From Thermofilum pendens Hrk 5 (lineage in GTDB: Archaea; Thermoproteota; Thermoprotei; Thermofilales; Thermofilaceae), in assembly GCF_000015225.1 (NCBI RefSeq), contig NC_008698.1:420001-452000 (forward strand): 32,000 bases of DNA. Direction: 5' to 3'. This document shows positions 1 to 24,407 of this stretch, one piece after another. The notes beneath the pieces are model-generated. The model saw only the letters and a program-made list of their open reading frames with translations, searched no databases and had not been told where the DNA came from. Position 1 is the first letter of the stretch, and every line of letters starts with the position of its first letter. Position numbers and translations under genes: made by a program.

Positions 1-752
1 TCAACGAGAAGAGGCATGTCAGCATCATGTGGCAAGTGAGAGTTAAGGGTGTCCGCAATGCGCCTAAGGTGTGGGCATTAAAAAAGGAAGAAAAGCGGAA
101 GATAGCGATCGCTGAGATTGAGGAGGCAAATAAGGGTAATATAGATGAGCAAAGGGCGCTGAGAATAGCGCTATACTACGCCGCCGACGGAAAGTATTCG
201 CAGAACTCGACCGCACGCGTGCTACTATTCGCCGTTGGCAAAGAGCAAAACTGGGTTAGAACCGAGGGCTCAGTCAGGATTGCAAGGCTCCTCTACGAGA
301 AAGCGCCACAGCTACTGGAATACATGGCTGCGTCGGGCTGCAAGAAGGCAATGTTCCTAGCACGCCTCGCGCTTATTGGACCGCGAAAGCTGTGCATGTC
401 TTACCAGCGTCTCGGCCTTTATGCACCGGTTGCCGGCGCGTTGCTTAACCTCGTTATGGTTGCCGTCGGCGACGAGTACGCCTACATATACGCCCGCATA
501 CCCGTTAGTAACGCGCCCCCAGGCTGGTACGAGAGGGCTGTCAAAGAGGGTTGGACTGTGAATGTTGTCCGGTCAGGCGAGACGCCTTACTACGAGATCC
601 CCCAGGACTCGCTTTTCGAGCGCGCGGCGGAGGATTCGGAGCTCTGGGAGGCTCTCTATGCGTTCGCTAAGGCTAAGGCGGAGGTTAAGCCAGCCGCGAA
701 GAAGCTAGTCGAAGAACTACTGAAGATACGCCCAGCTGGGGCGAGAAATTAA
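1..752 (+). CDS. Cassette family protein, copy A (5' end cut by window edge; C-terminal ~250 aa present)
   Basis: Frame 3 is open from the window edge (..NEKRHVSIMWQVRVKGVRNAP..) to TAA at 750-752. It aligns throughout with ORFs 17003-18427 and 20538-21638 (VRVKGVRNAP, LYYAADGKY, SGCKKA, YARIPV..P.GWYERAV.EGWTVNVVRSGETPYYEIPQDSLFE). Confidence 0.8.
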   Translation, partial: NEKRHVSIMWQVRVKGVRNAPKVWALKKEEKRKIAIAEIEEANKGNIDEQRALRIALYYAADGKYSQNSTARVLLFAVGKEQNWVRTEGSVRIARLLYEKAPQLLEYMAASGCKKAMFLARLALIGPRKLCMSYQRLGLYAPVAGALLNLVMVAVGDEYAYIYARIPVSNAPPGWYERAVKEGWTVNVVRSGETPYYEIPQDSLFERAAEDSELWEALYAFAKAKAEVKPAAKKLVEELLKIRPAGARN

Positions 753-4530: not shown

Positions 4531-4535
4531 CTTAA

Positions 4536-4560
4536 GAGGAGGGGGCCGGGCGCCTTTCCC
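4536..4560 (+). repeat. GC-rich cassette boundary motif, copy 2 (solo, 3' part missing: GAGGAGGGGGCCGGGCGCCTTTCCC)
   Basis: Matches the first 25 nt of the motif and runs into GCGCGCG instead of TGGTGG. No family gene is attached. Confidence 0.7.
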
Positions 4561-4781: not shown

Positions 4782-4890
4782 GCCGGGGTAGCTCAGCTGG
4801 GAGAGCGCTCGGCTGAAGACCGAGTCGCGCACCCGGCATAGAGGTGCGCTGCGGGAGAGGTCCCGGGTTCAAATCCCGGCCCCGGCACCA
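4782..4890 (+). tRNA. tRNA-Phe(GAA) with a 33-nt non-canonical intron after the anticodon stem (4825-4857), CCA encoded
   Basis: Clean cloverleaf: GCCGGGG / GCTC-AGCTGGGA-GAGC / CTCGG-CTGAAGA-CCGAG / [insert] / AGGTC / CCGGG-TTCAAAT-CCCGG / CCCCGGC-A-CCA. The insert has a 7-bp hairpin GCGCACC..GGTGCGC. Confidence 0.9.
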
Positions 4891-5997: not shown

Positions 5998-6125
5998 TGG
6001 TGCGGGGGCCGGGATTCGAACCCGGGCAGGCCAACGCCAGCGGAGCTCCCATTGAATGTAATCCTGAGTATAGGCCCAGCCTCCAGGCCGGTCCGCCCCC
6101 TTTGACCTAGCTCGGGCACCCCCGC
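5998..6125 (-). tRNA. tRNA-Leu(CAG) candidate with two introns (about 6069-6091 and 6046-6062), CCA encoded
   Basis: The reverse complement reads GCGGGGG-TG-CCC-GAGCTAGGTCAAA-GGG-G-GCGGA ... TCCGC-TGGCGTTGGCCTGC-CCGGG-TTCGAAT-CCCGG-CCCCCGC-A-CCA. This is a type II tRNA with a long variable arm and A73. The only loop-like anticodon context between the stem halves is CTCAGG, flanked by 23-nt and 17-nt inserts. Confidence 0.7.
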
Positions 6126-6998: not shown

Positions 6999-7030
6999 GG
7001 GGAGGGGGCCGGGCGCCGCTTCCCTGGTGG
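6999..7030 (+). repeat. GC-rich cassette boundary motif, copy 3 (GGGGAGGGGGCCGGGCGCCGCTTCCCTGGTGG)
   Basis: Lies 6 nt beyond the TAG (7037-7039) that ends the out-of-frame C-terminal tail of copy B. Confidence 0.85.
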
Positions 7031-7036
7031 TTTACC

Positions 7037-8475
7037 CTATTCCTGCCCTGTCCCCAGCTTTTCGAGGTGATTCACGAGCTCCCAGGCTTTAGGATAGCTT
7101 TCCGCTTTTGTCTTCGTGAAGGCTGTCAGCGTTGCGCGTAGCTCCGCGTCGTAGCGGGCGTGCTCCATTAGCGAGGCGTGTGTAACCTGGTAGTACTCCC
7201 TACCCCACCCATTCGAACCACCCGGACGTCCCAGCCTTGAGCGCGTGCCTCCTCCACCCAGCCCGAAGGCACAGCTTCGACTGCGATCCTCGCGTAAATG
7301 TTGTTGGTGCTGGATACATAGGCTAGGTGTAGCTGTGCCCCTGCTATCTCGGCGTAGAACGGGTTGTTTCTCTGCCCGTTTTTCCTACCCTTCTTCCGAG
7401 GTAATCCGAAGCCGACGAATAGGAAGTGTTTGATCTTAGCGCATTTCGTCACCAATGAGACGAACTTGGTGTACTCGCTAGCCCTCTCCACGGCAAGCCT
7501 AGCGTTGATTATGGCGCTCTCAGCTGGGAGGTAGAAAACCTCGCTGCCTATCCTGAAGTGGAGCATCCGAAGCCTTAGAAAGAATGCGAGGTAGCCGTCT
7601 CCCAGGAAGGTAGTGAAAAGAGACGCTGGGTCGCCGTTGAGCTCCTTGCACTCCTCGACCAACCTGCGGAACTCCACGCGCTTCGTAGCGCCAATGAGCG
7701 TGGAGGCCCAGCCCAGCTCCTCCTCGTAACCGTAGACACGCACCTGCCACTGAAAGCTCAGCCTGGTGCTACCGAGTATGCCCGCCGTAACGCCGAGCCT
7801 GGCATCGTCGCTTGGAAAGGTTGCGAGCGTCGCTGGCAACTGCCACGGTTGAGTGGTACCGAAACGTACGTCGCTGTAGCGCCCGTGAGGGGGTGTCACA
7901 TCCGTAAGGATCCACCCCTTCTGCAGGCTCCTGAGAACATCGCTCGGAGTATTCACTAGAACCTGGGGAAACTCCGATTCGACCCAGAAGCCCTCCAATG
8001 GGATGTGTACGGACCAGCCATGCGTAGGCTTCGAGACCCTCACGTGCCAGTTCTCTCTAGGTATGTATACATGCCAGACTTTACCCTTCTTCTCAGCTCT
8101 AAGACCGTCGGCGCCGGCGTCGACGATTGCTTGCAACCTTCCTTTGAGCTCCATTACCGCGCCTCCTTCGCGTGGCTTCTCGTCGTCGTTCAGCAAGAGA
8201 TACTTCCTCAAGTCATAGTCGATGAACCTGTAAAACCTCGGGTAAACGCTGTCCGGCACGACGCTGTAGCCGTTTACGAGGAACTTGGTGAAGTCCCAGT
8301 TAATCCCAGACACCGTATCGTAGAGGCCGCGGTAGTGTATCTCGCCCCTCTTCTTCTTACCCCTGGACCTCCTCTTATCCTCTGTTCTGGTGGCGTAGAG
8401 GCTTAAAGCCGCCCTCCTCCACGTCTCCTCCCTAACAGTCTTCTCGATTTCCTCATACCCCATCATATCAACCAT
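7037..8475 (-). pseudogene. Cassette family protein, copy B (divergent paralogue; frame disrupted near 7187-7206)
   Basis: ORF 7168-8475 (435 aa) shares blocks with copies C and D (KVWHVYIP, GWILTD, FQWQVRVYG, FLGDGY, YARIAVEAVPSGWVEEARAQGWDVRVVRMGG). The conserved tail (EYYQVTHASLMEHARYDAELRATLTAFTKTKAESYPKAWELVNHLEKLGTGQE*) continues in another frame down to 7037. Confidence 0.75.
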
Positions 8476-8536: not shown

Positions 8537-8746
8537 GTGCGAACCATCGGCGCGCTTTCGCGTCTTCTGGCTAGCACTCTTAGGCGTGACGGGCTCTACG
8601 AGGCGCGCCTAGTAGAGGCTTTGGACGCAATCGAAGAGTTTTTAACCTCCGTGAGAGGCGCGACCCCGCAAGTCGAGGAAGACGAAGAGCTGGAGCGCGA
8701 GCTTAAGGGGTGCGTCGAGGAGCTTAGGGAGCTCGGACTAGCGTAA
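8537..8746 (+). CDS. Small acidic helical cassette partner protein, copy B (GTG start)
   Basis: 69 aa and about 85% identical to the ORF at 16705-16932 (RTIGALSRLLASTLRRD.LYEARLVEALDAIEEFL..V....PQVEEDEEL.RELK..VEELR.LGLA). It lacks the ATG and first 7 codons present in copy C. Confidence 0.55.
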   Translation: MRTIGALSRLLASTLRRDGLYEARLVEALDAIEEFLTSVRGATPQVEEDEELERELKGCVEELRELGLA

Positions 8747-16607: not shown

Positions 16608-16631
16608 CTCCCTGGTTTGTAAACCTGGGAG
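16608..16631. repeat. Hairpin CTCCCTGGTTTGTAAACCTGGGAG (extra copy of the GGTTTGTAAACC element)
   Basis: CTCCC/GGGAG and GGTTT/AAACC arms. A second copy of the core sits in the opposite orientation at 16660-16676 (CTACAAACCAGGGGGG). Confidence 0.6.
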
Positions 16632-16659
16632 AAAGCTAAAACCGCGAACCCTCACACGT

Positions 16660-16704
16660 CTACAAACCAGGGGGGAAGGGAAAAACGGGAATAAAAAGAG
16701 TTTT
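16660..16704 (-). terminator. T-rich tract plus CCCTGGTTTGTAG element downstream of small ORF copy C
   Basis: The reverse complement reads TAAAAAACTCTTTTTATTCCCGTTTTTCCCTTCCCCCCTGGTTTGTAG, colinear with 8747-8790. Confidence 0.45.
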
Positions 16705-16932
16705 TTACGCGAGCCCTAGCCCTCTCAGCTCCTCGACGCCCTCCTCAAGCTCTCTCGCTAGCTCTTCGTCCTCCTCGACCTGCGGGGCGCTTCTCACGGA
16801 TGCGAGGAATTCCTCTATCGCGTCCAAAGCCTCTACTAGGCGCGCCTCGTAGAGCTCGTCGCGCCTAAGAGTGCTCGCCAGTAGCCGCGAAAGCGCGCCT
16901 ATCGTTCGCACGGTAACCCTCGGGTCACTCAT
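16705..16932 (-). CDS. Small acidic helical cassette partner protein, copy C (ATG start, 75 aa)
   Basis: MSDPRVTVRTIGALSRLLASTLRRDELYEARLVEALDAIEEFLASVRSAPQVEEDEELARELEEGVEELRGLGLA. Start set at ATG 16932, with GGTGGT upstream. The 140-aa ORF-track version extends antisense into the family gene. Confidence 0.6.
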   Translation of the reverse strand: MSDPRVTVRTIGALSRLLASTLRRDELYEARLVEALDAIEEFLASVRSAPQVEEDEELARELEEGVEELRGLGLA

Positions 16933-17002
16933 CAACCACCACTGACCCCTGATGCCGCGCCCTCGCAGGGCGCCCCCTCCACCATATAAGGACGGGTGAA
17001 AT
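16933..17002. promoter_or_regulatory. Conserved divergent control region of cassette C (TATA-like CCATATAAGG / CCTTATATGG)
   Basis: Colinear with 8476-8536, plus about 34 extra nt that include the small-ORF ATG. The TATA-like box is at 16983-16991. Confidence 0.5.
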
Positions 17003-18427
17003 ATGGTTGAGGAGTACATGAAGGGAGATGGAGCCGTGACGGGGGAGGGCGTCGAAGAGTTCGACGAGGGGTTCATTCGCGAGAAGCTTAAAGAGCTTCT
17101 GAGGAAAGCTATCTTCCACCGATTCAACTACAGTGGTCTCGAGGCTACGTGCACGCGCGTAATGTGGGAGTTGATTAACCTCAAGGCTGAGTACCAGCGC
17201 TACGGCGAGGTCTACGTAGAGCTTACCAACAAAGCGGAGGTAGGCGTCGAGAAGGCTTGCAGAATAGCGAAGAGAGTGTTTAGAGAAGCCTTGGAGCACT
17301 TCGAAGAGCTCAAGGTACGGAGGACTGGGAAGGCAACGTGGAAGGTTAAGATTCCGGGCGAGAAGTGTAGAATCTACGTGTATAGGAAGCCAGCCGGGCA
17401 CTGGGCTGTTGAGATTCGCTTGTATATCAGAGTCACCAAGTTCATTGTTCCCGACACTCTAAGGCTTCCACCGGAGCTACTAGTAGACGCACAGACGGGC
17501 TGGTTGTACGGAGATGCATCGTACATAGCGAGCCGCAAAGATGTCAGAATGGGCACCTCACAAGCATGGCAAGTAACCTCCTTCCCCGGTTTCTGGCCGG
17601 GGAAGGAGGTCGAAGTATACATCAGAAGTGTAGTAATCCACGAGACTCATGTCAGCGTCGTGTGGACTGTTAGAGTTAAGGGTGTCCGCAACGCTCCTAA
17701 GGAATGGAGGCTAAGGAAGGAAGAAAAGCAGAGTGTTATCCTGTCAGAGATTAAGGCAGCGAACGAAGGAGAAATAGACATTTTCAGGGCTGTTCGAATT
17801 GCAACATACTACGCCGCAGACGGAAAGTATCCAGGGCCAAACACGGCTAAACGTTTGCTGGAATTCGGGGTTGGCAACGAGCCGTACTGGATTAGAGTCG
17901 AGGGTGCGGTGAGGATTGCGAAGCTTTTACACGAGGAGGTACCACAGCTATTAGCATTCATGTGCAGTGCTGGTTGCAAGAAGGCACGGTATCTTGCCCG
18001 CCTCGCGCTCGTTGAGCCGAAACGCAACCTCTCGCCGCGCTACTTAGAGGTCGCCGGCGTACGGATGAACCTGCAACTTGTAGGTACTAAGAACTACCGT
18101 ACTCTTATAGCAAGAGTTTTCATCACAAATAATAATGAGGAGTTACTCAGGGGTTTTCCTGAGCGGGCAAGGGAAGAGGGTCTCATAGTTAAAAAGATGA
18201 AGATAGACAAGAAGTACTACGGCTACTACGCTGGCTTGCGCGAGTTGATGAGCTATGCCGATAAACACTTAGAGGCGTATGACATATTGATCGACTTTGT
18301 CAAGGGGGAGCTCGAAGAAATGCCTCTAGACCACCCCGCCCGCCAAAGCGTCGAAAGGCTTCTTGAACGCCTGAAAAAAGCTAGAGAACGCGCACTCAGA
18401 AAGCACGCTGGGGGCGAAAACAACTAA
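17003..18427 (+). CDS. Cassette family protein, copy C (only apparently intact full-length copy; twin LAGLIDADG-like motifs)
   Basis: 474-aa uninterrupted ORF. Motifs QTGWLYGDASY (aa 164-174) and IATYYAADGKY (aa 266-276) are each followed by beta-rich sequence. About 60-65% identical to copy D over the first ~330 aa. An alternative start is ATG 17018. Confidence 0.8.
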   Translation: MVEEYMKGDGAVTGEGVEEFDEGFIREKLKELLRKAIFHRFNYSGLEATCTRVMWELINLKAEYQRYGEVYVELTNKAEVGVEKACRIAKRVFREALEHFEELKVRRTGKATWKVKIPGEKCRIYVYRKPAGHWAVEIRLYIRVTKFIVPDTLRLPPELLVDAQTGWLYGDASYIASRKDVRMGTSQAWQVTSFPGFWPGKEVEVYIRSVVIHETHVSVVWTVRVKGVRNAPKEWRLRKEEKQSVILSEIKAANEGEIDIFRAVRIATYYAADGKYPGPNTAKRLLEFGVGNEPYWIRVEGAVRIAKLLHEEVPQLLAFMCSAGCKKARYLARLALVEPKRNLSPRYLEVAGVRMNLQLVGTKNYRTLIARVFITNNNEELLRGFPERAREEGLIVKKMKIDKKYYGYYAGLRELMSYADKHLEAYDILIDFVKGELEEMPLDHPARQSVERLLERLKKARERALRKHAGGENN

Positions 18428-18435
18428 AGCGTAAG

Positions 18436-18467
18436 ACCACCAGGGAAAGGCGCCCAGCCCCCTCCTC
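18436..18467 (-). repeat. GC-rich cassette boundary motif, copy 4 (ACCACCAGGGAAAGGCGCCCAGCCCCCTCCTC)
   Basis: Starts 8 nt after the copy C stop codon. Confidence 0.85.
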
Positions 18468-18643: not shown

Positions 18644-18741
18644 TGGCGGGCCGGCCGGGATTCGAACCCGGGACCTACGGGTTAAGAGCCTCGACCCAGA
18701 GTTGCTTAGACCGCCGCTCTACCTAGCTGAGCTACCGGCCC
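18644..18741 (-). tRNA. tRNA-Lys(CUU) with a ~21-nt non-canonical intron inside the 5' anticodon stem (about 18690-18710), CCA encoded
   Basis: The reverse complement reads GGGCCGG-TA-GCTC-AGCTAGGTA-GAGC-G-GCGG[TCTAAGCAACTCTGGGTCGAG]G-CTCTTAA-CCCGT-AGGTC-CCGGG-TTCGAAT-CCCGG-CCGGCCC-G-CCA. Confidence 0.85.
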
Positions 18742-18786: not shown

Positions 18787-18852
18787 GGAGGAGAGAGCCG
18801 GGCGCCTTTCCCTGGCGGCGCGCACAAGGAGGGGGCGTTCCCTTGAAGCGGG
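18787..18852 (+). repeat. Apparent collapsed cassette: boundary motif copy 5 (GGAGGAGAGAGCCGGGCGCCTTTCCCTGGCGG) followed 10 nt later by a control-region-like GGAGGGGGCGTTCCCTTGAAGCGG
   Basis: 18787-18818 matches the boundary motif. 18829-18852 resembles GGAGGGGGCGCCCCTGCGAAGGCG from the cassette control region. No family ORF lies between them. Confidence 0.5.
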
Positions 18853-18947: not shown

Positions 18948-19634
18948 TCATAGATGCGGTGTCGTGACTGTTATCGACTTTGCTCCCATCTCCTCTAAGA
19001 GCAGAGGGTCTAGGGACTGAAGAATCTCTTTGAACTCCTTCAGGCCTAGTATGAGCACACCTTCCTCCACTAGGGGACCTACGTCGTAGAGGTTGACTAT
19101 CAACGGGTAGAGCTTAGCTTGTTTACCTAGCCGTATTCCTATGTCTGCTCCCGACTTCATTTTGTCAGCCAGCGCTAAGCACCGTTCAAGATGCGCTTTC
19201 GCGGCTTTTTTCAGAGAAGACGGCGGGGCTCTTCGCCACCTCTTACAGTCAACAACTAATACGAGGTTGTCGCTCGCAGCTATAAGGTCTACCTCGAATC
19301 TTCTTCCTAAGTTTTTAAAGCGGAGATTCCGCTTGGTCCTAAGCCCGAAGCTTTCCGCTAGGTAGCAGCAGAGTTCCTCAAAGCTACTCCACCCGGAGCT
19401 TAACGCCAAGGATACAACGTCGTAGCCGTGTAGCCAAGCCTTAACGAGAACCCCCGGTAGAGACTCTTCGATGTAGCCGTTGACTACGGGTATTTCTAGG
19501 CTTTCTAGGACCAGCTGGACGAACTCCTGTGGAAGACCAGTTTCAGACACTATCTCGGTGATGCTGGCTACCTTACCCCGGGAAAGAAGTTCTGCGGCTT
19601 TCTTGAGGACTAACTCTACCTTAAAGCTTATCAA
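18948..19634 (-). CDS. Hypothetical protein with N-terminal wHTH-like region and PD-(D/E)xK nuclease-like core
   Basis: FEVDLIAASDNLVLVVDCKRW fits a D...(D/E)xK restriction-endonuclease-fold motif. The N-terminal ~60 aa is helical (ITEIVSETGLPQEFVQLVLESL). Confidence 0.35.
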   Translation of the reverse strand: MISFKVELVLKKAAELLSRGKVASITEIVSETGLPQEFVQLVLESLEIPVVNGYIEESLPGVLVKAWLHGYDVVSLALSSGWSSFEELCCYLAESFGLRTKRNLRFKNLGRRFEVDLIAASDNLVLVVDCKRWRRAPPSSLKKAAKAHLERCLALADKMKSGADIGIRLGKQAKLYPLIVNLYDVGPLVEEGVLILGLKEFKEILQSLDPLLLEEMGAKSITVTTPHL

Positions 19635-20084: not shown

Positions 20085-20420
20085 TCACCCGCCAACCTTT
20101 CCTATAACTACGAACGAGACAGACTTTGCCAACGGGCGTGTCTCCGCGACGATGACCTCGTCGCCGGGCTTCACCGGTATGCAGGGCGGCACACGTACAT
20201 GCTTCTTTTTACGCCTTACTTCATACCTTTTATACTTCTCGTTGTAGTAAAGATACTCGTGTACAGCCACCGCCACGTTGTGCATTTTAACCTTCTCTAC
20301 GCGTAGCCTCAGCACTTGTCCTCTCACGGGCAACTCCCCATGCCACGGGCACAGAGGGTCGTTACACTTCATTTGCGGAGGGCTTACTCCGGGAATACCC
20401 ACACCCTTCAACTTTGCCAT
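20085..20420 (-). CDS. rps17: 30S ribosomal protein S17 (uS17)
   Basis: CNDPLCPWHGELPVRGQVL...KMHNVAVAVHEYLYYNEKYKRYEVRRKKKHVRVPPC..VKPGDEVIVAETRPLAKSVSFVV. Confidence 0.92.
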   Translation of the reverse strand: MAKLKGVGIPGVSPPQMKCNDPLCPWHGELPVRGQVLRLRVEKVKMHNVAVAVHEYLYYNEKYKRYEVRRKKKHVRVPPCIPVKPGDEVIVAETRPLAKSVSFVVIGKVGG

Positions 20421-20483: not shown

Positions 20484-20496
20484 ACGGATACTCAAT

Positions 20497-20528
20497 GAGG
20501 AGGGGGCCGGGGCGCCTTTCTCTGGTGG
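20497..20528 (+). repeat. GC-rich cassette boundary motif, copy 6 (GAGGAGGGGGCCGGGGCGCCTTTCTCTGGTGG)
   Basis: Ends 9 nt before the copy D stop codon (20538-20540, minus strand). Confidence 0.85.
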
Positions 20529-20537
20529 TTTTACCCC

Positions 20538-21922
20538 TTATTCTAGTGCCCCAGCTGGGCGTATCTTCAGTAGTTCTTCGACTAGCTTCTTCGCGGCTGG
20601 CTTAACCTCCGCCTTAGCCTTAGCGAACGCATAGAGAGCCTCCCAAAGCTCCGGGTCCTCGCTCGCGTGCTCGAAAAGCGAGTCCTGGGGGATCTCGTAG
20701 TAAGGCGTCTCGCCTGACCGGACAACATTCACAGTCCACCCCTCCTCTACTGCTCTCTCGTACCAGCCTTGAGGCGCGTTATCAACGGGTATGCGAGCGT
20801 AGATGTAGGCGTACTCGTCGCCGACAGTAACCAAGGGGAGGTTCAGCATCGCGCCGGCAACCGGTGCATAAAGGCCGAGACGTTGGTAGGCGCGTGGCGC
20901 GCGAGAAAGGGCTAAGCGCGTCAGGAATTCCGCCTTTTTACACCCTGAGACACGCAGGAAGGCTAGTAGTTGCGGAGTCCTTTCGAGAAGCAACCGCGCT
21001 AACCTGAGGGACTGCTCCGTCCTAACCCGGTACGACTTACTGCCTACTGCGAATTCCAGCACACGTTTAGCCGTGTTTGACCCTGGATACTTACCATCAG
21101 AGGCGTATAGTAGTGCAAGCTTTACCGCCCTGACGATGTCGACTTTTCCTTCGTTCGCCTCCTCGATCTCCGCCAAGATAATACCCTGTTTCTCCTTTTT
21201 GGGGAGACTCCACCATCGAGGCGCGTTGCGGACACCCTTAACTCTGACAGCCCACATTATGCTGACGTGAGTCTCGTGAACCGTTACGCTTTCGATGTAG
21301 ACTGTCACCTCCTTCTCCGGCCAGAAACCGGGGAAGGAGACGGCCTGCCACACCTGCGTAGTAGTCATCTCGACTTCTTTCTTGTCTGCGCGGTATGTTG
21401 CGTCGCCGTATATCCAACCCGTTTGAGCTGCTACCAGCAATTCGGAAAGCTCCAAGACATCGGGAAGTCTCAGCTTAGCGACCTTGAGGTATAAACGGAT
21501 TTCGACGCTCCAGTACCCGCCTGGCTTTAAGTGCATGTATATCCTCCACTTTGTGCCTGGAATCTTAACCTTCCACGCCGTCCTGCCCGTCCTTCGTATC
21601 TTCAGTTCTTCGAAGTGTTCTAAAGCCTCCTTCGCCACCCTCCGCGCGATCCTGAAAGCCTTCTCAACGCGAACCTCTTCTCTGCTGACGAGCTCTACGT
21701 AGACCTCGCCGTATTGCGCATAATTGGCCTTTATGTTGCCAGCTCCCGCGTGACTTCTTCATGCGTAGCCTCGAACCCCCTGTAACCGTCGCGCGGAAAC
21801 AACGCCTTCCTGAGAAGCTCCCTGATCTTCTCGCGAATGAACTCCTCGTCGAACTCGGCCCCTGCCTCTCCCGCCACAGCCCTTTCATTCCCCGTCATTA
21901 CTACTTCATTCATACCTACCAC
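20538..21922 (-). pseudogene. Cassette family protein, copy D (frame disrupted near 21723-21748)
   Basis: ORF 21731-21922 (..EFDEEFIREKIRELLRKALF..FEATHEEVTRELAT*) aligns to the N-terminus of copy C. The continuation NIKANYAQYGEVYVELVSREEVRVEKAFRIARRVAKEALEHFEELK... is open in a different frame and merges with ORF 20538-21638. Confidence 0.8.
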
Positions 21923-22030
21923 CCGTCCTTAAACGGTGGACGGGGCGCCCTACGCGTACGCGCTATCAGGGGTCAGCGTGGCGGGAAGCATGAGTAGTGA
22001 GCGCTTCGCGCGCGATGCGCGCGGCACACG

Positions 22031-22315
22031 CTACCACAGCATGACACGTCTCTTAAGCCTCTCCTCGGGTCTACCAACGAGGAAGGCTCCATCGACGAGT
22101 AGTTCTTTGCCGTCGGGTAGCTTGATCCTGAGCACTACTTGAGCCTTAAAGATTCTCTTCTTGGGCCCTCCGGGTACTCCTATTACTATCGTCTTGTAGG
22201 TCTCATCCAGTATGAGCCCGCAGATCCCTACCTGACTGGGGTTTTTCGACTTAACGACGCAGGCTTCAAGACCTATAAGCTCGTGCCGGAGTATGTTCTT
22301 CGGAGTTATCTTCAT
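22031..22315 (-). CDS. rnp1: RNase P protein component 1 (Rpp29/Pop4)
   Basis: HELIGLEACVVKSKNPSQVGICGLILDETYKTIVI....KKRIFK......I.LPDGKELLVDGAFLVGRPEERLK. Confidence 0.88.
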   Translation of the reverse strand: MKITPKNILRHELIGLEACVVKSKNPSQVGICGLILDETYKTIVIGVPGGPKKRIFKAQVVLRIKLPDGKELLVDGAFLVGRPEERLKRRVMLW

Positions 22316-23789: not shown

Positions 23790-24135
23790 TTATTCTTGCT
23801 TTGTCCCAGCTTGTTTAATTCTTAGCAGTTCTTCAACAAGCCTACGCGCAACGGGCTTAGCCTGCGCCTTTGCGAGGACGAAGCGGTATAGCGCCTCCCA
23901 GAGCGTCGCATCCTCCGCTGTGTGCTCGAAAAGAGAGTCCTGGGAACCTGGTAGTAAAGCGTACTGCCTGACCTGACAACCTTCACAGTCTACCCCTCCT
24001 CGACCGCCTTCTCGTACCAGCCTGAGGGCGCGCTATCAGCTGGTATCCTAGCGTAGATGTAGGCGTGGACTATATCCCATAAGCACGAAGGTTCAACAAC
24101 ACACCAACAACCGACGCATAGAAGCTAAGCCACCG
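23790..24135 (-). pseudogene. Cassette family protein, relic E (C-terminal ~115 codons; nonsense plus frameshift)
   Basis: The reverse complement reads HAYIYARIPADSAPSGWYEKAVEEG*TVKVVRSGSTLYYQVP. After a 1-nt frame slip it reads DSLFEHTAEDATLWEALYRFVLAKAQAKPVARRLVEELLRIKQAGTKQE*. TGG->TAG lies at 23990-23992 and the frame slip near 23939-23944. Confidence 0.75.
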
Positions 24136-24373
24136 GTAGGCCACCTTCTGCCCGGGTTCCTTACCCTCCTTACTCGGCCCGCCGTAGGCAACATATAAGA
24201 TGTAACTGACCTTGTCACACCTAGCGTCACGCGACACGAACCTCACGTATTCCCATGTACGCTCAACCGCGACGCGGGCGTTGAAAGCAGAGCCTTCTGG
24301 TTGAAAGATGCTCCATTACCGCGCTTCCTTCTCTCTCGCGCGAGCTGGGAAACCCAGACAGATAAAGCGGAAA

Positions 24374-24407
24374 ACCGCCAGGAAAAAGGCGCCCCGCCCC
24401 CCTCCTC
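24374..24407 (-). repeat. GC-rich cassette boundary motif, copy 8 (ACCGCCAGGAAAAAGGCGCCCCGCCCCCCTCCTC)
   Basis: Inverted relative to copy 7. The preceding ~45 nt (GAGCTGGGAAACCCAGACAGATAAAGCGGAAA) resembles the 3' end and stop context of a plus-strand family gene. Confidence 0.7.

Follow-up and report, generated by a model that had tools for sequence, protein, structure and literature searches.

In the 32-kb stretch analyzed here (hereafter the window) of the chromosome of Thermofilum pendens, a hot-spring archaeon, the gene that we call copy C probably encodes a member of a new, highly diverged two-domain LAGLIDADG-fold family carried on a selfish, free-standing cassette, with a nuclease activity and a target site that we infer. 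The sequence-only reading of this DNA had proposed a homing-endonuclease-like gene. Motif conservation, topology, structural matches and context agree with that proposal, but profile matches do not, and the Foldseek scores are weak. The present analysis establishes motif conservation, the topology given by structure prediction, the rank of LAGLIDADG proteins at the top of the structural matches, and the architecture and decay of the cassette.

Two motifs and their conservation

Copy C (17003..18427, + strand) is an intact ORF of 474 aa, encoding a LAGLIDADG-like protein with 100% identity to a T. pendens hypothetical protein. Motif 1, QTGWLYGDASY (aa 164-174; 17492..17524, +), lies at the C-terminal end of a predicted helix (157-169) and contains a small-xxx-small-Asp pattern, G166-x3-G170-D171 (D171 codon, 17513-17515). 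Motif 2, IATYYAADGKY (aa 266-276; 17798..17830, +), lies at the C-terminal end of a second predicted helix (260-273), with D273 (codon 17819-17821) followed by G274. Re-reading the ORF returned both motifs where the sequence-only reading had placed them, and the variants it had quoted from other copies are present as well: TGWIYGDATY and ALLYASDGKY in copy D, KGWILTDVT and TFLGDGYLA in copy B, and ALYYAADGKY in copy A.

With two motif helices about 100 aa apart and a small-xxx-small-Asp(-Gly) pattern, copy C resembles the monomeric LAGLIDADG enzymes I-DmoI, I-SceI, I-Tsp061I and I-OnuI. From D171 to D273 copy C spans 102 aa, compared with a motif spacing of 96 aa for I-DmoI and 101 aa for I-SceI. 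GWLYGDASY and YYAADGKY also resemble GLILGDAYI and WFMDDGGK of I-SceI. The motifs had been likened to LAGLIDADG on the basis of a small residue at position 3 and an Asp at position 8. These residues are indeed present, but as a criterion they perform at chance level: 37% of copy C protein shuffles contain such a pair of motifs about 100 aa apart, and the criterion alone is therefore not significant. A stricter LAGLIDADG-like pattern, chosen post hoc, was satisfied by 0/5000 shuffles.

The meaningful signal is the conservation. Among 10 T. pendens paralogues (25-64% identity), G166, W167, D171, D273 and G274 are all invariant. Across 35 distant relatives with a mean column identity of 22%, only 9 columns reach 90% conservation, and the two 11-aa motifs account for 4 of them (hypergeometric P = 3.8e-4). 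G166 is kept in 35/35 of these relatives and D171 in 34/35, with S, T or G at position 170 in 35/35; in the second motif, position 272 is G, S, A or C in 35/35, D273 is kept in 33/35 and G274 in 34/34. The small-xxx-small-Asp pattern, written as G166-x3-[STG]170-D171 and [TAS]268-x3-[GSA]272-D273-G274, is nearly invariant in the 35 relatives. In these alignments, no part of the family is more conserved than the two motifs.

Distant relatives also carry canonical motifs (GLLLTDGSI and FAVLGDGNI), and their complete second domain resembles I-DmoI and I-CreI by sequence pattern. Outside the motifs, T185-x-Q187-x-W189-Q190 is near-invariant at the end of beta2 in domain 1, where T-x-Q187 parallels the invariant Q47 of the I-CreI family. 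Complete second domains contain an invariant Lys 80 aa past the Asp, comparable to the invariant K98 that lies 78 aa past D20 in the I-CreI family, and K327 is invariant in domain 2.

Judging by the homologues recovered, the family is limited to Thermoproteales: at least 12 T. pendens paralogues, sequences from Vulcanisaeta and Infirmifilum MAGs, and metagenome sequences. A word-indexed homologue search with a distant-member profile returned T. pendens proteins and one other only. Locus scans of genome, viral and metagenome collections gave zero relatives (the genome collection apparently does not contain T. pendens), and no homologues were found in the plasmid and phage/virus collections.

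Profile searches and predicted structure

The sequence-only reading had proposed a check against LAGLIDADG profiles (PF00961, PF03161 and PF14528, to which we added PF14527). This check came out against it, with zero matches at E ≤ 1 for four window copies, and at that threshold Pfam and NCBIfam as a whole gave nothing for any window copy. PHROGs and PADLOC gave nothing significant for the window copies, and with Pfam/NCBIfam we detected in them no helix-turn-helix (HTH) or other regulator domain and no transposase family. Searches of PDB sequences with phmmer and hmmsearch returned noise only, and the family profile recovered no LAGLIDADG chain there. Below threshold, 2/35 relatives gave Pfam matches to LAGLIDADG_WhiA (E 0.0017) and LAGLIDADG_3 (E 0.013 and 0.17), and the E 0.17 match, in a distant member, begins at motif 2. 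The C-terminal module of distant relatives gives sub-threshold Pfam matches to LAGLIDADG_WhiA, LAGLIDADG_3 and PaRep2b.

For hhalign we used an I-CreI family alignment of 44 sequences, collected with an I-CreI query sequence that was validated by 97% and PF00961-annotated matches. Comparisons with this alignment were not significant (P = 0.05 to 0.6), and neither was an internal repeat between domain 1 and domain 2 (P = 0.29). In every best hhalign alignment, D171 or D273 is paired either with the catalytic Asp of I-CreI, I-DmoI or I-SceI or with its counterpart in the other domain, and one subfamily aligned to I-CreI over 92 columns with P = 0.002.

AlphaFold models of the full-length protein and of the core reached pLDDT 84.4 and 87.6, from shallow alignments of 10-12 sequences. 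The predicted N-terminal extension (aa 1-156; 17003..17470, +) combines three long helices within 22-98 with a sheet of four strands at 104-148. Domain 1 (aa 157-254; 17471..17764, +) is predicted to form a full alpha-beta-beta-alpha-beta-beta-alpha unit: alpha(157-169), beta(172-175), beta(180-185), alpha(188-197), beta(202-212), beta(217-226) and alpha(239-254). Domain 2 (aa 260-336; 17780..18010, +) is predicted as a shortened alpha-beta-beta-alpha unit, with alpha(260-273), beta(286-290), beta(293-297) and alpha(299-312), and with further helices carrying K327 at its end. Distant relatives have some 30 aa more in this domain (alpha2'-beta3'), which are missing from the T. pendens copies. 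A predicted C-terminal module (aa 345-474; 18035..18424, +) consists of a beta-beta-beta-alpha-beta-beta-alpha unit and long helices. In the model, the first helix of each domain leads C-terminally to its Asp, with D171 following helix 157-169 and D273 closing helix 260-273, and the predicted secondary structure matches the order of motif, beta-rich sequence and helix that had been described from the sequence.

When the core model was searched against the PDB with Foldseek, the top 4 matches were all LAGLIDADG-fold proteins and the next ones had E > 0.2. Two bI3 maturase chains lead (E 3.2e-3, prob 1.00; E 1.1e-2), joined by I-Tsp061I and the WhiA N-domain, each with prob 0.97. The full-length model gives a similar picture, LAGLIDADG-fold proteins, mostly enzymes, making up about 40 of its top 50 matches. 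Across the Foldseek searches the best matches are almost all LAGLIDADG proteins (bI3 maturase, I-Tsp061I, WhiA, I-OnuI and I-DmoI), and a BFVD structure search likewise gives LAGLIDADG and intein proteins. For these predicted models, LAGLIDADG proteins are essentially the sole coherent class among the matches in three structure searches. In the suggested comparison with known LAGLIDADG folds, predicted topology and top matches point to LAGLIDADG proteins, but the scores are weak: E is about 3e-3 at best and never below 1e-3, TM is 0.26-0.39 and rmsd is 8-17 A. The low TM and high rmsd indicate that the predicted domain packing superposes poorly on real enzymes.

Copy C shares predicted alpha-beta-beta-alpha-beta-beta-alpha units with the monomeric LAGLIDADG enzymes, which are among its top structural matches. 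It differs from them in the missing significant profile match, the low TM-scores and the shortened T. pendens second domain, and in its N-terminal extension of about 156 aa and C-terminal module of about 130 aa.

The weak scores are what one might expect of a protein unrelated to LAGLIDADG, in which the motifs are convergent or chance features of a 'PaREP2b-like' repeat protein, maybe a transposase or structural protein, and AlphaFold and Foldseek reflect a generic alpha/beta repeat topology. We regard this explanation as rather improbable. It is consistent with sequence-profile tests that are all non-significant, with Foldseek E never below 1e-3 and TM at most 0.39, and with the shallowness of the model alignments. 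Against it stand the near-exclusive recovery of LAGLIDADG proteins by the structure searches, the position of the conserved residues at canonical places in both units (the C-terminal end of a helix, then a beta hairpin), the textbook motifs and full domain pattern of distant members, and the lack of a transposase family match in the window copies.

The connection to PaREP2b itself comes from two sources: UniRef names one paralogue PaREP2b, and a distant member has a sub-threshold PaRep2b match (E 0.0035). Like the Pyrobaculum PaREP2b family (PF07775), the T. pendens family is multi-copy and often degenerate within Thermoproteales, and PaREP2b elements have been described as putative transposons (PMC3558965). 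Unlike PaREP2b, the window copies have no PF07775 match. We rejected assignment to PaREP2b: the sole matching relative (1/35) scores 16.4 bits, below the gathering score of 20.4 bits, and its match is confined to 62 aa within the C-terminal module, aligned to positions 109-170 of the 512-position profile. In the literature, we found no paper linking paREP2 with LAGLIDADG.

The identity of the closest structural matches raises a different possibility. These include non-nuclease LAGLIDADG proteins (maturase, WhiA), which counts against our preferred reading and would fit a LAGLIDADG-derived protein that has become a domesticated or regulatory DNA- or RNA-binding factor, like WhiA or the intron maturases. 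Such a protein would bind the GGCGCC...CCCCCTCC motif upstream of TATA boxes, its own promoter included, and modulate neighbouring translation-related genes. We think this unlikely, although bI3 maturase and WhiA rank best or near-best for the core model, WhiA is also free-standing with extra domains, the sub-threshold Pfam match to LAGLIDADG_WhiA points the same way, and the second domain of the T. pendens proteins is shortened. WhiA and maturases have typically lost the acidic, flanking small and Gln/Lys residues that this family keeps, and WhiA also has a C-terminal HTH domain. Here, D171 (34/35) and D273 (33/35) are retained, and the acidic residues, flanking small residues and I-CreI-like Gln/Lys positions are nearly invariant family-wide; no HTH or other regulator domain was found.

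Cassette architecture and proposed movement

The copy C gene is carried as cargo by a free-standing cassette, roughly 1.8 kb long, whose elements run in the order left-end palindromes, a divergent 75-aa partner ORF, a conserved promoter, the main ORF and a 33-bp boundary motif. The same cassette occurs at two further T. pendens loci. Its left-end element (16610..16675), past the partner's stop, contains inverted CCCTGGTTTGTAAAC / GTCTACAAACCAGGG repeats, and ACCAGGG(A/G)A is common to this element and the 3' motif in the same orientation. The partner ORF (16705..16932, -), divergent from copy C, encodes 75 aa that are helical with an acidic C-terminus, and no family match was found for it. The conserved main-gene promoter (16967..16991, +) consists of a motif-like AGGGCGCCCCCTCCACC followed by a TATA-like ATATAAGG, about 12 nt 5' of the ATG. 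The 3' boundary motif GACCACCAGGGAAAGGCGCCCAGCCCCCTCCTC (18435..18467, +), of about 33 bp, lies 8 nt past the copy C stop codon.

Conservation is far higher in the boundary motif and partner ORF than in the main ORF: the partner ORF is 84-90% identical next to copies B, L001 and L002, whereas the main proteins of B and C are only ~25% identical. Near the end of the ORF, AGCTGGGG is kept in two different reading frames, indicating a DNA-level element. Elsewhere, searches for the boundary motif gave 5 chance matches in unrelated bacteria and zero in metagenomes. RNA folding at the 3' boundary was considered and rejected (4 weak pairs, -2.9 kcal/mol).

A free-standing, multi-copy gene with an N-terminal extension and its own partner ORF had been described from the sequence alone, and we saw all of these features at the copies and loci examined. 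All copies are intergenic: none lies within a tRNA (870-997, 4782-4887 and 18644-18741), and none is fused to a host protein. A location outside introns and inteins, multiple copies in one chromosome, and a conserved partner ORF and end motifs distinguish the cassette from the monomeric LAGLIDADG enzymes.

LAGLIDADG homing endonucleases perform divalent-metal-dependent cleavage of a 14-40 bp site, leaving 4-nt 3' overhangs, and in them the two motif helices pack against each other so that the acidic residues lie adjacent in a common active site. In the mechanism we propose, the copy C protein would be a single chain with two domains of LAGLIDADG fold, both canonical metal-binding Asp residues (D171 and D273) being retained, and this core would be flanked by the N-terminal helical/beta extension and the C-terminal alpha/beta module. 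The protein would bind and cleave a long asymmetric DNA site, for which the conserved motif, also seen solo a few bp upstream of promoters, is a plausible candidate. Recombinational repair would then copy the cassette into the break, and the partner ORF may also have a role. Because the target would be a dispersed repeat, the cassette would become multi-copy and then decay. Two features of the motif count against this reading: it is intact beside the gene, unlike a classical split homing site, and it is the same in B and C despite the divergence of their proteins.

Like free-standing homing endonuclease genes (T4 seg/mob, yeast HO), the cassette is intergenic, lies beside conserved sequence and has degenerate copies. 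The phage seg/mob and yeast HO elements are single-site. Here, by contrast, the chromosome of a cellular archaeon carries several diverged copies that have a partner ORF and a single dispersed 33-bp motif in common. If the preferred reading is correct, a family now labelled 'hypothetical' or 'PaREP2b' would join the LAGLIDADG superfamily as a new and deeply diverged branch, and would exemplify an archaeal LAGLIDADG gene that lives in a multi-copy chromosomal cassette, away from introns and inteins. This reading would supply a biochemical hypothesis for one unexplained multi-copy T. pendens repeat family, whose link to Pyrobaculum paREP elements is sub-threshold only. The proteins could offer hyperthermostable scaffolds for long-site DNA recognition, and the spread of the cassette beside essential-gene promoters would become directly testable.

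Copies and solo motifs in the window

Five cassette copies lie in the window, three of them decayed (B, D and E), consistent with multi-copy spread followed by decay. Copy A (1..752, +), clipped by the window start, is identical over its portion inside the window to aa 210-458 of an intact 458-aa paralogue (P0006), with its boundary motif at ~760-793. Copy B (7037..8475, -), ~25% identical to C, is frameshifted near its C-terminus (ORFs 8475..7168 and 7168..7037) and has a boundary motif at 7030-6999 and a partner ORF at 8537-8746 (+). Copy D (20538..21922, -), 54% identical to C, has a frameshift near codon 58, no partner ORF and a boundary motif at ~20530-20494; it sits inside a ribosomal-protein operon, between an Rpp29-like gene and the S17 gene. 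Copy E (23796..24312, -) is a remnant with 5' truncation and multiple frameshifts that retains the C-terminal third only, followed by a degenerate boundary motif (23787-23750). Abutting it in the opposite orientation is a lone cassette 3' end (24343..24407, +), made up of the last codons and the boundary motif.

Solo boundary motifs occur at 4534..4560 (-), where only the core is present and no cassette adjoins, and at 18788..18818 (-), just upstream of the TATA-like box of tRNA-Leu (18741..18644). The motif always falls between a stop codon and the next promoter. It precedes the TATA-like box of the following gene by 8-25 bp, and the cassette's own promoter includes a motif-like element.

This placement would suit the regulatory, non-nuclease protein considered above. 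However, with 3/5 window copies decayed and one within a conserved operon, a selfish element fits better than a regulator, and a decaying multi-copy element is unlike WhiA or the maturases in not being a single conserved host gene.

The regular position of the motif after the stop codon is also compatible with an ordinary, non-mobile family of host paralogues, in which the apparent cassettes are old duplications and the post-stop sequence is a shared 3' signal (terminator or processing) or a promoter insulator. The age of the paralogues, at 25-64% identity, would agree with this, as would the lack of copies on plasmids, in viruses and in other genomes in the collections searched. We consider such a family very improbable, given the copy inserted within the conserved Rpp29-like/S17 ribosomal-protein operon, the frameshifted and truncated copies with a tail fragment abutting a remnant, and the solo motifs without genes. 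The conservation of AGCTGGGG at the DNA level and the failure to find a conserved RNA structure also argue against it.

More specifically, and only tentatively, the element may be an archaeal selfish cassette of a kind not recognised before, in which a LAGLIDADG endonuclease and its partner home into a dispersed motif of about 30 bp and not into one unique site. Its sites would then sit just upstream of housekeeping promoters (tRNA, ribosomal-protein and RNA-modification genes), and the cassette would spread to multiple copies within one chromosome, the paralogues diverging while motif and partner stay fixed.

A candidate target duplication at the insertion point is ACCAGGGAAA.

Two conserved motifs in the copy C protein

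Copy C, an intact gene (17003..18427, + strand), encodes a 474-aa protein with 100% identity to a Thermofilum pendens hypothetical protein. It contains QTGWLYGDASY (aa 164-174, motif 1) and IATYYAADGKY (aa 266-276, motif 2), which place D171 and D273 102 aa apart; the sequence-only reading had reported these peptides and their variants in copies A, B, and D, all of which we found as quoted. Its rule for the motifs, which asks for a small residue at the third position and Asp at the eighth, is not strict enough to serve as evidence, as 37% of shuffled copy C proteins hold a pair meeting it at similar spacing. A stricter LAGLIDADG-like pattern, chosen post hoc, was present in 0/5000 shuffles. 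We judge the motifs to be real because they are conserved across paralogues and relatives, and not because of that rule.

Eight more T. pendens paralogues of copy C were detected at E <= 1e-3; searched exhaustively with HMMER, a set of 1.84 billion cluster representatives yielded just 45 relatives, the distant ones from Vulcanisaeta MAGs, Infirmifilum MAGs, and metagenome contigs. Ten T. pendens paralogues (25-64% identity) share G166, W167, D171, D273, and G274 without exception. Across 35 of the 45 relatives, aligned with a mean column identity of 22%, conservation reaches 90% or more in nine columns, four of them inside the two motifs (P = 3.8e-4). In motif 1 these relatives retain G166 (35/35), Ser, Thr, or Gly at position 170 (35/35), and D171 (34/35); in motif 2 they retain Gly, Ser, Ala, or Cys at position 272 (35/35), D273 (33/35), and G274 (34/34). 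In both motifs the columns follow the small-xxx-small-Asp(-Gly) pattern that marks a LAGLIDADG helix. Among distant members the motifs take textbook forms (GLLLTDGSI, GWEMTDGSI; FAVLGDGNI, LTWWLGDGSV), and the second domain of these members runs from the motif helix through a beta hairpin, a 'KYELW..I..L..LGF' helix, and a second hairpin to an 'SSKA..LA' helix, an order that resembles a canonical LAGLIDADG domain at every element.

Profile searches and predicted fold

None of the window copies matched a Pfam or NCBIfam model at E <= 1, and family profiles retrieved none of the LAGLIDADG chains in the PDB. With an I-CreI family alignment built as the hhalign target, domain 2 (P = 0.05), domain 1 (P = 0.58), and the whole family (P = 0.28) were not significant, nor was the internal repeat of domain 1 against domain 2 (P = 0.29); the two domains are the predicted units opened by the motif 1 and motif 2 helices. 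The profile match proposed as a check was thus not obtained at significance in any of these searches. All best alignments put D171 or D273 on D20 of I-CreI, D21 of I-DmoI, D145 of I-SceI, or each other, and a subfamily with a complete domain 2 aligned with I-CreI over 92 columns (P = 0.002). Sub-threshold Pfam matches among the 35 relatives include LAGLIDADG_WhiA (E 0.0017) and LAGLIDADG_3 (E 0.013 and 0.17). The match of E 0.17 starts at motif 2; both stronger ones are in the C-terminal module, which may thus represent a third LAGLIDADG-like unit that has no motif. Beta2 ends in T185-x-Q187, at the place of the invariant Q47 in I-CreI, and complete second domains have an invariant Lys 80 aa past the Asp, compared to the invariant K98 of I-CreI 78 aa past D20. 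Q187 and this Lys may parallel Q47 and K98, which we take to act in the I-CreI active site. These weak sequence signals all agree in direction.

We modeled copy C with AlphaFold2 at full length (pLDDT 84.4, pTM 0.64) and as a core of residues 150-395 (pLDDT 87.6, pTM 0.74). Domain 1 is predicted as alpha 157-169, beta 172-175, beta 180-185, alpha 188-197, beta 202-212, beta 217-226, and alpha 239-254, and domain 2 as alpha 260-273, beta 286-290, beta 293-297, and alpha 299-312 followed by more helices; compared to distant relatives, domain 2 of the T. pendens proteins is missing ~30 aa (alpha2'-beta3'). In each domain the first helix has the Asp (D171 or D273) at its C-terminal end, the position of the catalytic acidic residue in LAGLIDADG enzymes. 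The four leading Foldseek matches of the core model in the PDB are all LAGLIDADG folds: bI3 maturase chain A (E 3.2e-3, prob 1.00, TM 0.36) and chain B (E 1.1e-2, prob 1.00), I-Tsp061I (prob 0.97), and the WhiA N-terminal domain (prob 0.97).

The proposal of a LAGLIDADG protein holds in part: the fold is probable, with motif conservation, the predicted topology, and weak Foldseek leads in its favor and the non-significant profile tests against it. Those tests count for one main rival, an unrelated repeat protein for which motif and model are misleading. Read most economically, the data point to a new, highly diverged family of the LAGLIDADG fold with catalytic-type residues under selection. 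We put an active endonuclease at slightly below even chances.

The model flanks this core with an N-terminal extension (aa 22-148; three long helices and a four-stranded sheet) and the C-terminal module (aa 345-471; beta-beta-beta-alpha-beta-beta-alpha and long helices). The N-terminal sheet carries RKPAGHWAVEIRLY (17375-17416, aa 125-138), which in our view resembles, as a lead only, the WVAEIR strand of AP2/integrase-type DNA-binding domains; Pfam finds no AP2 match in copy C. Such domains sometimes accompany homing endonucleases.

One T. pendens paralogue bears the UniRef name 'PaREP2b', an assignment left unsupported by the absence of Pfam matches at E <= 1 for the window copies. The sole literature statement found describes PaREP2b elements as putative transposons (PMC3558965); none of the literature searched connects paREP2 to LAGLIDADG.

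Cassette layout and boundary motif

The copy C gene lies outside tRNA and rRNA introns and shows no host-protein fusion, and with five window copies and a partner ORF at C, B, and two further T. pendens loci (L001, L002), its description as free-standing, multi-copy, and partnered is borne out. The partner (16705..16932, - strand, at C) is divergent, helical, and 68-75 aa long in these four cassettes, matches no family, and is 84-90% identical between cassettes, versus only ~25% for the main proteins of B and C. The main ORF promoter region is conserved as AGGGCGCCCCCTCCACC then ATTTAAGG.

Directly after each main ORF stop codon lies a ~33-bp boundary motif, (G)ACCACCAGGGAAAGGCGCCCGGCCCCCTCCTC, degenerate behind remnant E and absent elsewhere in the sequence collections searched. 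Solo motifs occur at 4534-4560 and 18788-18818 (both - strand), and the core GGCGCC..CCCCCTCC at 775-791, 4538-4554, 6999-7017, 18449-18465, 18790-18806, 20499-20516, and 24388-24405. Where a gene follows (a tRNA, S17, or a TrmI-like gene), the core is 8-25 bp upstream of a TATA-like box, and the related AGGGCGCCCCCTCCACC directly precedes the cassette's own TATA box. The core could be a promoter-upstream operator, beside or in place of a homing target. A second main rival, a non-catalytic DNA-binding derivative acting at the boundary motif, would sit well with such an operator; the conserved catalytic-type residues speak against it. Homing into this dispersed promoter-proximal motif we regard as less likely than not.

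AGCTGGGG (18407-18414 in C) recurs ~20 nt before the stop in other copies and shows nucleotide conservation across two reading frames, one giving Ala-Gly and the other Leu-Gly, so the conserved 3' element reaches into the coding region as a constraint on the DNA itself. RNA structure in this conserved end was unsupported. Past the partner stop, the left cassette end (16610-16675 and its L001/L002 equivalents) has inverted CCCTGGTTTGTAAAC / GTTTACAAACCAGGG palindromic repeats. ACCAGGG(A/G)A, found at both cassette ends in one shared orientation, may be a duplicated target or recombination site.

Decayed copies and neighboring genes

Copies A, B, and D were located by tblastn of C against the window, and copy E by a search with all paralogues. 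Copy A (1-752, +) is cut by the window start; its part inside the window matches P0006, an intact paralogue of 458 aa. Copy B (8475-7037, -; ~25% identity to C) runs on in another frame past its annotated stop (region 7037-7249, -) as a 43-aa ORF (7168..7037) that tblastn aligns at 67% identity with the C-terminus of P0010, a full-length paralogue. This places a frameshift near the C-terminal end of B, whose boundary motif follows the true gene end. Copy D (21922-20538, -; 54% identity to C) is frameshifted near codon 58, is without a partner ORF, and lies (region 20494-21990) inside the ribosomal-protein operon, flanked by an Rpp29-like gene (22315..22031) and by S17 (20420..20085), which is now preceded by D's boundary motif and a TATA-like box (GCTTTATAATAA). 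Copy E (24312-23796, -) is decayed down to its C-terminal third, which has several frameshifts; its boundary motif (23787-23750) is degenerate. An isolated cassette tail in the opposite orientation (last codons and boundary motif, 24343-24407, +) lies right against this remnant, an arrangement that suggests recombination or nested insertion between cassettes.

A LAGLIDADG-like gene carried on a selfish, decaying, multi-copy cassette is the most economical account of these copies. Plasmids, phages, IMG/VR, and the contig collections yielded no homologues, a result compatible with the third main rival, a non-mobile paralogous family; the abutting cassettes and the copy inside an operon point to the selfish cassette. 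The one distant relative whose context was examined (P0053) is free-standing among cellular genes.

The short T. pendens paralogue P0012 (244 aa), with Ser for D171 and Ala for D273, is the sole family member to have lost both acidic residues, a loss that fits a decayed copy. Genes neighboring the cassettes are housekeeping genes. Two tRNA matches near boundary motifs (870-997, +, 128 nt; 4782-4887, +, 106 nt), found by Rfam and missed by ARAGORN, far exceed standard tRNA length, suggesting that they contain introns. A long-arm tRNA-Leu (18644-18741, -, 98 nt) is bracketed by two inverted motifs, and a long-arm tRNA-like match at 6004-6100 (-) is sub-threshold (24 bits). A 228-aa ORF adjoining cassette C (18948-19634, -) gives weak matches to the nuclease domains Mrr_cat (E 7.5e-4) and NERD and is not repeated with the cassette.
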